Source: Calditrichaceae bacterium
Lineage (GTDB): Bacteria > Calditrichota > Calditrichia > Calditrichales > JBFXGD01
NCBI GenBank assembly: GCA_050173015.1
Contig: JBFXLE010000045.1
Span: 1-14,460 of the forward strand
Reading direction: 5' to 3'
Length of the DNA: 14,460 nucleotides
Made by a program: the position numbers and the translations under genes. Each line of letters opens with the position of its first letter. Within the stretch, counting starts at the first letter, position 1. Below the pieces are notes generated by a model. It was not told the origin of the DNA and ran no database searches. It saw nothing but the letters and a program-made list of their open reading frames with translations. This document shows positions 11,528-14,460 of this stretch, piece by piece.

Positions 11528-12400
11528 ATGAAAACCCGCAAAACACACCCCATCAATCAAAATTATCGAAGAACTATTCGAAATCTGATGATTTTTATAA
11601 TTTTAGTACTGGCGAGTGGATGGATTGGTCGGGCACTGGATTTGGCAACGGACAGTCCCGCTCAGGAGGGTCCCGGAATTCTTTTGTGGATAATTACCCC
11701 ACTTTTGGTTTCTCTGCTGCTGAGGACATTTGCAGGAGACGGCTGGAAGGATTTTGGTCTCAGGCCACACTTCAAAAAAAATGTTTCCTGGTATGTGGTC
11801 GCGCTACTTATCTATCCTGTTCTGACAGCTCTCGTTCTGATAGCAGGCCGTGGATTGAGTTTGATTTTATTTCCCGATTTCTCACTAAATTCGCTTTGGC
11901 TGATATCCCAAACCTTTGCGCTGGGCATCCTGCCGCAATTCATAAAAAATATCTTCGAAGAGGCCGCCTGGCGCGGCTATCTCGCTCCAAAGGTGTATTC
12001 GCTTAATCTGAACGATTACTCCGGGCACCTGATCGTCGGTCTTGTCTGGGGGGCATGGCATATCCCCTACTATCTGTTTTTTCTTGATCAGACTATTCTC
12101 CAAAACTTTACAACATTAGATTTATCCGTCTTCATCCCCTTGTCAATCATCGTGATGATCTCCTGGGCAATGGTGTATGGTGAAATTCTGCTTCTCACAA
12201 AATCATTTTGGCCCGCGGTTTTAATGCATATGGTAGAAGACGCCTTTCTTAACCAGCTTTTTACCGACCATCATATACGGATTACCGCCGGAACGGACTG
12301 GTTGGTTTCACCGGTGAATGGATTGATGAGCATCGCCCTGTTTGTTCTTACCGCGGCTGTCTTGCGTAATATTAGATTGAGAAGAGCAGCAGTTTTATGA
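11528..12400 (+). CDS. CPBP (CAAX/Abi) family intramembrane glutamic endopeptidase
   Basis: Multiple hydrophobic helices. Motif 1 FEEAAWRG, motif 2 GLVWGAWH, motif 4 SFWPAVLMHMVED. RBS AAGGAG at 11511-11516. Confidence 0.92.
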   Translation: MKTRKTHPINQNYRRTIRNLMIFIILVLASGWIGRALDLATDSPAQEGPGILLWIITPLLVSLLLRTFAGDGWKDFGLRPHFKKNVSWYVVALLIYPVLTALVLIAGRGLSLILFPDFSLNSLWLISQTFALGILPQFIKNIFEEAAWRGYLAPKVYSLNLNDYSGHLIVGLVWGAWHIPYYLFFLDQTILQNFTTLDLSVFIPLSIIVMISWAMVYGEILLLTKSFWPAVLMHMVEDAFLNQLFTDHHIRITAGTDWLVSPVNGLMSIALFVLTAAVLRNIRLRRAAVL

Positions 12401-12444
12401 AAAAGTCAGAACGCGCGTGAACAAAAAATATCCGAGACAGGCGC

Positions 12445-12647
12445 GGGAGCCCAAATTGTGCCGCCCTACCCTTAACTCATAACTCATTTCACTTAACGCT
12501 TTTAAATTCTTACTTCTCGCTTTGCCCCAAAAAACAACCCCCTTAGTCCCCCTTTGGTAAGGGGGAAACTGCCCGTTCTTACTCTTTTTTCTTTTATCTT
12601 TTTTCTTAAACTTCTTACTTCCTACTTCTCACTTCCTACTTTTTTCC
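12445..12647 (+). repeat. Mosaic intergenic repeat, copy C (intact hairpin at 12547-12566)
   Basis: Same head (CCCAAATTGTGCCGCCCTAC), heptamers and core hairpin as copy B, followed by an ACTTCCT heptamer tail. The left part is nearly identical to 14249-14342. Confidence 0.93.
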
Positions 12648-12689
12648 CAAGCAAGCAGAAGATCCCTCCTGGATGTCTATTGAGAAAAA

Positions 12690-12695
12690 AGTCAA
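12690..12695 (-). promoter_or_regulatory. -35 box (TTGACT) of the IS circle-junction promoter; the -10 TAAATT is at 14205-14200
   Basis: Joining the two IS ends gives TTGACT-tttttctcaatagacgg(17 nt)-TAAATT, pointing into the transposase gene. Confidence 0.7.
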
Positions 12696-12814
12696 TAGGG
12701 CGTTTTTCTCCATTATGAATTTTAATTCATTTTTTTTTACTCTGACTTTTGGTCGAACGGTCTGCCAATGCCGATAATCTTCTTTTTTGTTTTGTGTATT
12801 TATTATTTACCTGT

Positions 12815-13035
12815 TTTTATAAACTTTATACTATGCGTCTATTTGAGCTTTGCCATTTTCCATGAAAAGGCGGCTATGGCAAATTTCGAGTTTTTTTATT
12901 GATGGGGACGGGTTAACCGACACATGGGCACTTTATCTTTGTGCATCATCCAGAATGAACTCTCATCCCCAAACTCTTAAATACACCTAGAGCGCTCCTG
13001 GTCTTTATGGGCCTAACAGCGACCGCACCATATTT
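12815..13035 (-). ncRNA. Putative bridge RNA / seekRNA of the IS1111-type element
   Basis: Structured region downstream of tnp. The stem GGGGATGAGAGTT/AACCCGTCCCC encloses CTGGATGA (12953-12946) and TGTC (12922-12919) around a GCAC/GTGC hairpin, matching the reconstructed target. A second domain contains AATAGACG (12843-12836), matching the reconstructed donor junction. RNA ends are approximate. Confidence 0.72.
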
Positions 13036-14112
13036 CTAGGCAGCTGTTATTTCATCCTTTCTCCAACGATACGGTTCATATTTCCGACCATTTTTAAGCA
13101 TACTTAAACTTACCTTTGCCAGGTAACGACTTACCATCTGGTGCGCCTGCTTATCGGTCAGTCCTTTTGCAATCAGGGTCTGATAATATTCATATACCGG
13201 ATTATGGCCACCCTGAATGGCGGTGTATGCCGCATTTTTATAAACTTCTTTTAACAACCGGTTATAACGGGGGCGGCGTTTGCCATAGTTCTTATTGCCG
13301 CTGCTTTTTTCCAGCCAGACCAGTCCGCAATACGAAAGGTAAGAGCCTTTTTTGGCAAAACGTTGTGGCTGAATAACCACCGCTAATATCTTAAAGGCAT
13401 TGATGTAACCTATGCCCGGCAAAGCCATGATATTTTTCACCGCGCTTTGACCATTTACTATTTTTTTTATCTCTGCTTCAAATGCGGCTTTATCTTCACG
13501 GTATTTTTCTATCATGCTCTCCTGCCAGTCAATGATTATTTTATAGTGACCGGGGTGACTAAGAAGCGCCTGATGTTCCGTTTTGTCACATTTGCTGTAT
13601 CGCATACCCCGGGCTCTGTAAAGGGCGCTACGTTGATTTTGCACGCGAACCCCTGCCTTGACAAGATCCTCATAAGCGCTTAAAAGGTGGCGCAGGTGAT
13701 ACAACCTGTCACAACTGTGAAATACTTCCTTTAGGAAACCACCCCGAAGAAGACTGCATAATTTCATCGCATCATATTTATCTGTTTTGGGGCCATCGCT
13801 TAAAAGATGATTGTAATAGGGATCACATATAACTATTCTGTCCACCACATCTGTTAGCTCCACATATAGCCAATGTGATGAAGTGGTCTCCTCAATGGTG
13901 AGTATCTTTTTTCCTTTCAAAGAAAACAGATGCTCTTTTAGCTCCTTTAAATTACTCTTCCTCCATTCAACGACTTTTATCCTGGGACTCTTTTGAGTCA
14001 TACGGGCCAGGGCAACGCTTTCCTGTGACCAGTCCAAAGCAAGGTAGTGATCATAATAATCCAAATTATCCTTGTAATTGCTCTTTGGGCTATTTAACAT
14101 TGAGGTGTTCAT
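13036..14112 (-). CDS. IS110-family transposase/recombinase (DEDD RuvC-like domain plus Tnp20 domain)
   Basis: LALDWS, IEET and KTDKYDA form the DEDD tetrad; LPGIG and YCGLVWLEKSSG carry the conserved serine. The start is placed at ATG 14112 (358 aa) rather than 14160 because AGAAAGGAG lies 6 nt upstream. Confidence 0.93.
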   Translation of the reverse strand: MNTSMLNSPKSNYKDNLDYYDHYLALDWSQESVALARMTQKSPRIKVVEWRKSNLKELKEHLFSLKGKKILTIEETTSSHWLYVELTDVVDRIVICDPYYNHLLSDGPKTDKYDAMKLCSLLRGGFLKEVFHSCDRLYHLRHLLSAYEDLVKAGVRVQNQRSALYRARGMRYSKCDKTEHQALLSHPGHYKIIIDWQESMIEKYREDKAAFEAEIKKIVNGQSAVKNIMALPGIGYINAFKILAVVIQPQRFAKKGSYLSYCGLVWLEKSSGNKNYGKRRPRYNRLLKEVYKNAAYTAIQGGHNPVYEYYQTLIAKGLTDKQAHQMVSRYLAKVSLSMLKNGRKYEPYRWRKDEITAA

Positions 14113-14240
14113 AAAGGTCTCCTTTCTTTTTTGAGATGTCATTTTACAAATGTATTTCATACATTTCTACACCATTAAAGATTGTGAGACCTTTTTCTCA
14201 ATTTACCGACAGGCCGGATTTTTCGAGGTTAACAGTATTC

Positions 14241-14342
14241 GGGATGTCCTTACTCTTAACTCATAACTCTTTTCTCTTAACGCTCTTAAATTCTTACTTC
14301 TCGCTTTGCCCCAAAAAACAACCCCCTTAGTCCCCCTTTGGT
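14241..14342 (+). repeat. Mosaic intergenic repeat, copy D (left half only, cut at the TGGT loop)
   Basis: Near-identical to 12465-12558. It ends CCCCCTTAGTCCCCCTTTGGT, followed immediately by an IS TIR. Confidence 0.93.
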
Positions 14343-14460
14343 CAGGCTGTTGCAAAATCAACTCATGCCAAAGCACTGTTGGGGATTAAAAAGAAATAAA
14401 ATTTTTCAAGATAACGTATGATTGTTCTTTGACATGAAGTTTTTAGAGAATTGACAGCGG
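14343..14460. mobile_element. Terminus of an insertion sequence (IS1182/IS5-like TIR CAGGCTGTTGCAAAA), truncated by the window edge
   Basis: It interrupts the repeat exactly after TGGT (14339-14342). The TIR is the inverted match of 82-93. Confidence 0.72.

Follow-up and report, generated by a model that had tools for sequence, protein, structure and literature searches.

RNA-guided recombinases of the IS110/IS1111 insertion sequences (ISs) are under intense study as genome-editing tools, and few have been tested so far. In IS621, a single RNA combines a target part with a donor part (Durrant et al. 2024, PMC11208160; Hiraizumi et al. 2024, PMC11208158). Within each part, a pair of guides covers opposite strands to the two sides of the crossover, at which the guides overlap (PMC11208160). 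Bridge RNAs have been predicted in the right end of 93.0% of the ISfinder IS1111 elements (PMC11208160), and the seekRNAs of four IS1111 members, ISEc11, ISPa11, ISKpn4 and ISPst6, have been shown at the bench (Siddiquee et al. 2024, PMC11187229). We analyzed a 14,460-nucleotide (nt) stretch of DNA from a Calditrichaceae bacterium (contig JBFXLE010000045.1 of assembly GCA_050173015.1), here called the window, whose minus strand carries a 1533-bp IS at positions 12675-14207. Judged from its sequence and that of its relatives, this IS is very probably an active, IS1111-style member of the IS110 family with a two-domain bridge/seek RNA that guides its insertion. A first-pass annotation of the window had proposed such an RNA downstream of a divergent, probably uncharacterised IS110 recombinase. 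The last adjective is fair for the branch, which appears to be new (transposase under the NCBIfam cut-off and without a close annotated relative in the collections searched, RNA scaffold outside Rfam); the class itself has been known since 2024 (PMC11187229, PMC11208160).

The limits of the IS were defined by comparing junctions within its own genome, a 4.34-Mb assembly of 54 contigs searched with blastn. We found element ends at contig ends, with left-end junctions on C45 (the window), C9, C13, C24 and C37, and right-end junctions on C45, C6, C27, C53 and C54. All junctions were alike only from GGTAAATTGAG... to ...CTCAATAGAC, which places the limits at 12675 and 14207, give or take one C (that at 14208 or that at 12675). 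With five junctions of each kind at contig ends, the host genome seems to hold about five copies, and the assembly to have broken at them. The same junctions yield the circle junction ...AATAGAC|GGTAAATT, as the first-pass annotation had reconstructed it. The parts of the element are as follows.

12675-14207, minus strand: whole IS, supported by five left and five right junctions and by empty repeat copies
14188-14207, minus strand: left end, terminal extension GGTAA plus subterminal inverted repeat ATTGAGAAAAAGGTC, from comparison of the left end with the reverse complement of the right end
12675-12693, minus strand: right end, subterminal inverted repeat plus terminal extension ...TAGAC, from the same comparison and from homologues with the same layout
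13036-14112, minus strand: transposase gene, 358 amino acids, matching PF01548 and PF02371 and, below its cut-off, NF033542; the family profile matches the C-terminal domain of the IS621 transposase

This layout resembles that of the IS1111 elements with seekRNAs (PMC11187229). The subterminal inverted repeat ATTGAGAAAAA is perfect over 11 bp (15 bp with one mismatch), within the 7-17 bp reported for IS1111 (PMC11208160), and is set back from the left and right tips by 5 and 4 nt, respectively, leaving short terminal extensions. The non-coding ends measure 95 nt on the left (14207 to the start at 14112) and 361 nt on the right (the stop at 13036 to 12675), with the longer region downstream of the transposase gene. 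Further features shared with those elements are insertion in one orientation at a specific short site, targets that are often host repeats, a guide complementary to the top strand that stands 5' of the bottom-strand guide and overlaps it in the target, and a stem that is kept in relatives while the loops change, amounting to natural re-direction (PMC11187229). Gene order, subterminal repeats and guide order therefore fit the published IS1111-type seekRNAs (PMC11187229). The transposase differs in length (358 amino acids versus the 330-350 stated) and in the motif GL-P----S(t)G, which here reads GLVWLEKSSG, with GL and SG kept and W at the P (PMC11187229). It is also far from the annotated transposases searched, the scaffold is without an Rfam family, and the likeness to the IS1111 group is one of layout.

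The proposed RNA is like that of IS621 in combining target and donor parts in one molecule, with two overlapping guides per part (PMC11208160, PMC11208158). Unlike IS621, whose RNA lies in the left end, this IS has it in the right end; the guides come in reverse order, the 5' arm being the one for the top strand; the right flank is read by the long guide and the left flank by the short one; and donor and target share one base rather than a CT dinucleotide. ISPpu9 and ISPpu10 of Pseudomonas, which target REP sequences, likewise occur in multiple copies at the same position of a repeated intergenic host sequence, and ISPpu9 has a small RNA gene downstream of its transposase gene, as proposed here (PMC12288879, bioRxiv 10.64898/2026.03.19.712850). 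Their host repeat and phylum are different, and this likeness is by description only.

We assessed the transposase by profile searches. The open reading frame runs from 14160 to 13036 on the minus strand (374 amino acids), and the likely start is the ATG at 14112, behind AAAGGAGA. Both IS110 Pfam domains passed their cut-offs (PF01548, 34.4 bits against 29; PF02371, 46.8 bits against 21.3). The NCBIfam model NF033542, 'IS110 family RNA-guided transposase', matched over its full length (23-343 on 1-342 of 343; E = 6.8e-39) at 134 bits, below the cut-off of 140, a near miss that shows a protein apparently divergent rather than non-homologous. The best plasmid-borne IS110 transposases were at most 26% identical (288 records, all under 60%). 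With both domains present and a score 6 bits under the NF033542 cut-off, 'divergent IS110 recombinase' was a fair description. Like IS621, the protein combines a DEDD domain with a serine-bearing C-terminal domain: the family profile matched the IS621 transposase at 3.8e-9 and that of ISCro4 at 1e-8, in both cases in the C-terminal domain, with the SG of GLVWLEKSSG aligned to that of IS621. The N-terminal domain gave no significant IS621 alignment; its D27, E74, E75, D111 and D114 are invariant in 28 relatives. The single protein found no PDB chain at E<=0.01 with phmmer, IS621 included. A match to the NCBIfam 'TIGR-Tas system RNA-guided endonuclease' model (residues 140-312; 3.9e-12, 46.6 bits, cut-off 100) presumably reflects the common ancestry of that domain with IS110 transposases.

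Relatives were numerous (1209 at E<=1e-3 among 3665 candidates) and nearly all metagenomic, the best being 95, 74 and 67% identical. We used an alignment of 28 of them (A1) to query genome contigs (128 confirmed of 138 pattern matches) and metagenome contigs (545 of 580); the single-protein query against genome contigs had given 41 pattern matches and no confirmed one. The homologous loci used below are the best 80 of the 128 and the best 80 of the 545. Host labels of the relatives include Ignavibacteria, Melioribacteraceae, Bacteroidales, Bacteroidota, Calditrichaceae and Desulfobacterota. Some relatives lie on short contigs binned to distant lineages (L037, in an archaeal Candidatus Syntrophoarchaeum metagenome-assembled genome (MAG); L069 and L108, in Chlamydiia MAGs), labels that may reflect the binning of multi-copy IS contigs and not true hosts. 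Closer to the host, we searched 30 related genomes. The one genome of the same genus (94% complete) had no match to the element, and among relatives at the order level only one held a 48%-identical fragment, other matches being 22-26% identical; the element is thus patchy in the host lineage.

The insertion site is TGTC|ATCCAGG, inside an abundant host repeat.

14208-14211, minus strand: left target half TGTC (flank), present in 4/5 left flanks and identical to the 3' target guide UGUC
12667-12674, minus strand: right target half ATCCAGGA (flank, in the host repeat), with 4/5 right flanks reading ATCCAGGAGGGATCTTCTGC; complementary to the 5' target guide
Predicted target sequence: TGTCATCCAGGAGG

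The left flanks differ from one another, the fifth (C13) ending in TTTC; the fifth right flank (C6) has ATCCCTCCGGGAT. Empty repeat copies read TGTCATCC.GG, giving an empty site TGTC|ATCC.GG and an empty target of CTGGATGACA on the plus strand, or TGTCATCCAG in element orientation. The first-pass annotation had proposed this empty target, and it is real: it stands in unoccupied copies of the repeat, the genome contains 13 exact occurrences of the 10-mer TGTCATCCAG, which leaves free targets, and contigs from other metagenomes match the plus strand of the window up to 12675 and then continue ACA..., the same empty-site reading. In the host's own genome, the 18-mer CCAGGAGGGATCTTCTGC of the right-flank repeat had 10 exact copies and 53 copies with at most two mismatches. 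The 49 unoccupied ones read ...GTCAT (one GTCAA, one GTCAC) before CC.GGA.GGATCTTCTGC. We observed the CCAGG variant, the rarer form and the one specified by the guide, in 4/4 occupied copies versus 10/53 copies overall. By our arithmetic, C(10,4)/C(53,4) = 7e-4 for all four occupied copies being CCAGG, a figure for insertions that may not be fully independent, though their left flanks differ.

The host repeat surrounds the element (window 12440-12674 and 14208-14420) and also occurs on contigs C29, C15, C46, C34, C38, C10, C17 and C27. The own-genome search returned 174 matches in all, mostly to the flanks alone. Repeat units end ...GTCAT CC.GGA.GGATCTTCTGCTTGCTTGGGAAG, and purine-rich AAGTAAGAAGT runs come next. 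Tandem arrays of units spaced by 130-460 bp are frequent, and the left parts of the units vary between arrays.

We then analyzed the non-coding region behind the transposase gene. Every string on which the first-pass annotation built its RNA is present on the minus strand where it had been placed (GGGGAUGAGAGUU, AACCCGUCCCC, CUGGAUGA at 12953-12946, GCAC/GUGC, UGUC, AAUUUGCC and AAUAGACG). The proposed RNA and its parts are as follows.

About 12824-12986, minus strand: conserved structured non-coding region, proposed bridge/seek RNA (covariation in alignment A2, 56 homologous regions)
12971-12976, minus strand: GAGUUU, pairing with AAACUC (12893-12888) and closing the first domain (centroid fold and clade changes; moderate support)
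12970-12958 / 12914-12904, minus strand: outer stem GGGGAUGAGAGUU / AACCCGUCCCC of the target-binding loop (helix 1)
12946-12955, minus strand: 5' target guide UUCUGGAUGA, pairing with top strand TC+ATCCAGGA with one G.U; variable in homologues and complementary to their right flank
12928-12944, minus strand: inner hairpin GCAC-loop-GUGC (12944-12941 / 12931-12928; helix 2)
12917-12922, minus strand: 3' target guide UGUC (12922-12919) then GG, equal to the left flank plus the first two left-end bases
12876-12886, minus strand: left-end guide AAAUUUGCC(AU), with AAUUUGCC at 12885-12878, pairing with left-end GGTAAATTT with one G.T wobble
12846-12875, minus strand: inner stem-loop of the donor domain, AGC 12875-12873 / GCU 12848-12846 and GCC 12871-12869 / GGC 12854-12852 (helix 3)
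12836-12843, minus strand: right-end guide AAUAGACG, equal to the last seven right-end bases plus the first left-end base

In 157 of the 160 fetched homologous loci the gene could be followed to its stop. The scaffold was found downstream of the gene in 88/158 loci (the 157 and the window) with fixed anchors, and in 91 in a looser first pass; loci without it were mostly cut by contig ends or too divergent for the anchors. Its first part reads GAGAG[C/U]UCA, about 10 variable nt, a hairpin (UGCA...UGCCA), about 7 variable nt and CGGUUA[A/G]CC. After a linker, the second part reads AAAUUU[G/A]CC[G/A]U, an AGCC-hairpin-GAGCUCA and A.AUAGACG. Alignment A2 holds 56 of 73 non-redundant regions, chosen by hand. 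Left out were L138, L183, L086, L037, L175, L090, L185, L151, L048, L036, L047, L178, L139, L077, L083, L159 and L069; most had the guide family of a kept row, and L083 and L069, which did not, were simply unchosen.

RNAalifold on A2 returned the first domain only, with outer and inner stems of 12 pairs, 10 of them with double changes. The second domain's inner helix was placed manually and counted with the other two. Across the three helices, 95.1% of 895 cells held standard pairs, compared to 82.1 +/- 0.7% in shuffles. Compensatory changes were seen on both sides of 13/16 pairs (121 double-change cells versus 32.9 in shuffles), and 0/500 shuffles matched the observed pairing percentage or covariation score. 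Pairing fell to 31-55% when partners were slid by 1-3 columns. In helix 1, 7 of 9 pairs changed on both sides (95.6% paired), and in helix 2, 3/3 did (97% paired). Telling pairs were UA:28 / CG:27 in the outer stem, GC:37 / AU:16 in the inner stem and GC:48 / AU:8 in helix 3, where GCC/GGC is replaced by ACA/UGU in relatives such as L117. Three pairs held G.U (8, 10 and 7 sequences), which would be A.C on the opposite strand; the folded strand is therefore the transposase-sense strand.

Two stems of the first-pass annotation fared less well. For the UUUGCCAU/AUGGCAAA stem, thought to compete with the left donor guide, the strings exist, and the pairing is not conserved; GGC 12854-12852 pairs with GCC 12871-12869 instead. 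The strings of the AAACU/AGUUU closure of the second domain are also present; the pairing is not conserved, the 95%-identical L111 and the C6 copy having AAUUU. The more probable partner of AAACUC (12893-12888) is GAGUUU (12976-12971), which lies upstream of the first domain; support for this is modest: the centroid fold pairs 5/6 bases of GAGUUU with AACUC, and other clades show matching changes (GAGGUCUU/AAGACUC, AGUAU/AUACU, AGAAU/AUUCU).

Both domains contain the same module, a 3-bp helix GYU/ARC in which CA plus a guide leaves GYU, and a guide plus GU(U) enters ARC (12960-12956 / 12914-12910 and 12877-12872 / 12848-12844; A2 columns 31-33/117-119 and 173-175/216-218). This helix is the outer one in the first domain and the inner one in the second, with coupled C/U and G/A changes in both. 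The two domains may have arisen by duplication, or may be held in the same way by the protein. Between the RNA domains, L155 (1051-1225) has a 20-nt GC-rich palindrome. In L122, L123 and L124 the scaffold begins 237-280 nt after the stop codon versus 60-85 nt in their nearest relatives, with roughly 150-220 extra nt and a long hairpin between stop codon and RNA.

From one relative to the next, the first domain changes in its two variable stretches, and these match the insertion site of the element that carries them. The first stretch is complementary to the right flank, and the stretch preceding CGG has the sequence of the final 4-8 left-flank bases.

L116: loop CGCAAU, right flank ATTGCG
L117: loop GGGAAU, right flank ATTCCC
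L125: loop UCCUAU, right flank ATAGGA
L157: loop AUCCCUUCG, right flank (C)GAAGGGAT
L136: loop AACGGCGUU, right flank AATGCCGTT, one G.T
L115: loop CGGGAU, flank ATCCCG
L114: loop AGGAAU, flank ATTCCT
L148: 3' guide CCUGUCC, left flank CCTGTCC
L104: 3' guide AUGGGGUC, left flank ATGGGGTC
L168: 3' guide CCUGCAC, left flank CCTGCAC

Right flanks were defined in 69 elements, left flanks in 75, and both in 58 non-identical ones. In these 58, the 5' guide had a median pairing run of 8 (Watson-Crick) or 9 (with G.U), compared to about 3-4 for mismatched guide/site pairs, and the 3' guide a median match of 4 or 6 bases, compared to mostly 1. We performed a permutation test on 51 elements, each representing a different guide pair. 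Observed means of 8.29 and 5.33 compared with permuted means of 4.53 (maximum 5.35) and 1.95 (maximum 2.59), and 0/2000 permutations reached either observed mean. Thus the covariation of guides with flanks in homologues, which the first-pass annotation had put forward as a check of its reading, is present. The structure is conserved and its loops covary with the target flanks, as in bridge RNAs and seekRNAs.

The target guides of the window have the top-strand match on the 5' side and overlap on TC, a two-base overlap that had been predicted; this is the IS1111 arrangement. The 5' target guide had been placed correctly as an 8-mer at 12953-12946, which falls short in length, as the guide probably reaches 10 nt (UUCUGGAUGA, one G.U). 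The GG or GA that follows the 3' target guide tracks left ends starting with GG or GA. Within the host genome, the C6 copy (C6:211100-211664) has UUUC in place of UGUC in its 3' target guide, and among the left junctions a TTTC flank is found just once, at the end of contig C13 (C13:1-200); we infer that the C6 and C13 contig ends are one element copy. This second copy probably sits at TTTC|ATCCCTCC, where only 6 bases match the unchanged 5' guide, and is possibly a half-matched insertion.

To assess the donor guides, we relocated right ends by the inverted repeat alone, since the first search had used the RNA's own 5-mer. The guide 5-mer stood directly behind the inverted repeat in 46/56 distinct elements. 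Two right-end variants were followed by the RNA: (A)TACAC in 3/3 and (A)TAGGC in 7/9, the other two reading TAGGT. The remaining eight elements mostly look like wrong repeat matches; two read TAGAT, one base off the guide. At the left end, UUUGCC with GGTAAA, a G.T wobble, is the commonest form and UUUACC the next, and elements with left end GATAAA carry UUUAUC, with CGA replacing CGG behind the 3' target guide. The first-pass annotation had found a 7/8 match for its left donor guide and had considered the assignment weaker because of an overlap with a predicted stem. The mismatch is this G.T wobble; as it is the commonest form in the family and UUUAUC accompanies GATAAA, the doubt was not borne out. 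The second pair of guides thus covaries with the element ends over three end variants, with few independent changes. With target and donor guides all covarying with flanks or ends across dozens of independent elements, these data support the bridge/seek RNA reading.

The right-end guide AAUAGACG spans the right and the left end, and as DNA that sequence exists only on a circle junction. The donor guides overlap on the junction G, and on ACG in relatives whose left-end guide reads ...GCCGU. Target and donor share a single C (TGT-C-A versus AGA-C-G), in line with the one shared nucleotide expected earlier, and on this alignment exchange must presumably take place at that C. The base after the shared C in the target is G in about half of 51 elements (giving CG, the donor dinucleotide) and A in the other half, the window included.

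We also assessed how the element might be expressed. The right end-left end (RE-LE) junction carries TTGAC[A/T] (one TTGACG), 17 nt and TAAATT or a close variant (TA..TT) in 57/57 distinct reconstructed elements. In the window, the two halves are as follows.

12690-12695, minus strand: -35 half TTGACT, in a promoter complete only on the circle junction
14205-14200, minus strand: -10 half TAAATT, with a 17-nt spacer across the junction

From this sigma-70-like promoter motif, transcription would enter the transposase gene and continue in the direction of the RNA region. IS621, too, is known to have a promoter that only its RE-LE junction completes (PMC11208160). For the integrated element, a weaker candidate (TAGAAA-17-TAAAAT, 9 of 12) stands before the gene. 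The promoter scan gave 6 promoter-like sites versus 4.0 +/- 2.0 in shuffles, and no terminator was found on the minus strand in a scan. Twenty sequencing runs hold part of the sequence, none of them half or more of its words; two of the twenty are RNA runs (shares 0.07 and 0.04).

In the mechanism we propose, the element would excise as a circle that joins ...AATAGAC to GGTAAATT... and so assembles the promoter TTGACT-17-TAAATT, reading through the transposase gene into the 3' non-coding region. The product of that region would be a folded RNA, some 160 nt long, whose two domains both bear guides; the target guides of the first overlap on TC. Held by the DEDD/serine recombinase, the RNA would bring circle and target together, and the chemistry would be a strand exchange at the shared C, leading to insertion in one orientation at TGTC^ATCCAGG.

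Several observations weigh against this reading. One copy in the own genome sits at a site matching only 6 bases of the 5' guide, and 16/58 elements scored low on one guide; some of these look like insertions at imperfect sites. The register between 5' guide and crossover varies by clade and loop length, the loop position facing the last flank base being 9, 10 or 11, so that exact cleavage points are unreadable. Only one base is common to target and donor (TC|A versus AC|G); IS621, by comparison, favors a dinucleotide core that is the same in both (PMC11208160). For the outer closure of the second domain there are two candidates of similar strength, since the stretch ahead of the left-end guide can pair with the 5' leader (mean helix 5.41; shuffled 4.76) or the 3' tail (5.10; shuffled 4.48). 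The single sequence folds no better than chance (minimum free energy z = -0.48; 61/200 shuffles fold as well), and an Rfam 15 scan of 12400-14460 at E<=10 gave four chance-level matches, none near its gathering score; the evidence beyond chance is therefore comparative. The promoter scan found no convincing promoter directly before the RNA, which may have a start of its own or be processed from the mRNA. No transcript was seen, the two RNA runs giving contigs over 13695-14073 (transposase gene) only, which is uninformative on expression.

That the second domain lacks a conserved outer closing helix speaks for a different reading, in which only the first domain is a guide, the end matches of the second are DNA-level copies (extra transposase sites) or a structural or regulatory part, and the donor is recognized by protein and subterminal repeats. 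An 82-nt seekRNA of ISEc11 was sufficient, with transposition at least as good as with the 154-nt form (PMC11187229), so the need for a second domain is not a given. The donor guides also vary little, their covariation rests on few changes, and the left-end guide of the window is mismatched at the first core base. We nevertheless consider this reading unlikely: the changes that exist are coupled (ATACAC in RNA and right end 3/3, ATAGGC 7/9, UUUAUC with GATAAA), one guide is a reverse complement and the other same-sense as in the target loop, both flank the compensatory helix 3, AAUAGACG matches a sequence formed only after excision, and 93% of IS1111 elements have a predicted bridge RNA with donor loops in their right end (PMC11208160). 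A guide acting as DNA, with a folded right-end single strand pairing with the target like the subterminal guides of IS200/IS605, would produce the same sequence covariation and could form G.T wobbles, and no RNA has been observed. It is very improbable for a DEDD/PF02371 IS110 transposase, in whose family the guide is an RNA that co-purifies with the enzyme (PMC11187229, PMC11208160); the region also lies 130-310 nt inside the element, away from the cleaved end, and its frequent G.U pairs are typical of RNA stems. Finally, single matches of 4 to 8 nt and the unremarkable fold (z = -0.48) could be functionless resemblances of an AT-rich non-coding region to nearby flanks. The probability of this is close to nil, and we rejected it on the guide-flank permutations (0/2000, 51 guide pairs) and the stem shuffles (0/500).

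Guidance by a two-domain RNA, the reading we prefer, leads to a wider and distinctly more doubtful proposal. The relatives could form a deep-branching, mostly metagenomic IS1111-like clade (at least 1209 proteins, E<=1e-3) with a compact two-domain RNA and rules unlike those of IS621. Such rules might include a top-strand guide of 9-11 nt with a bottom-strand guide of 4-8 nt and a conserved G.T wobble in the left-end guide. Equally tentative are a single base shared by donor and target in about half of the elements, and a helix-plus-arms module (GYU-CA... / ...GU-ARC) that may recur in permuted order in both domains. We found no publication pairing IS110 or 'bridge RNA' with 'Ignavibacteri' among the matches listed; the supplementary tables of PMC11208160 and PMC11187229 may list the clade. 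Should the rules hold at the bench, the clade would offer an orthogonal scaffold for programmable recombination with looser core requirements, and a training set of over 50 natural guide/target pairs would come with it.

Homologous elements measure 1456-1753 bp, and about 50 of these relatives are naturally reprogrammed, on a branch far from the elements tested so far. Together with them, the window supplies a complete element with exact ends, target and guides and an RNA fold backed by covariation. No new principle is revealed; the element is unusually well defined by natural variation. In the host genome, the IS explains the assembly breaks and a host repeat family peppered with elements.

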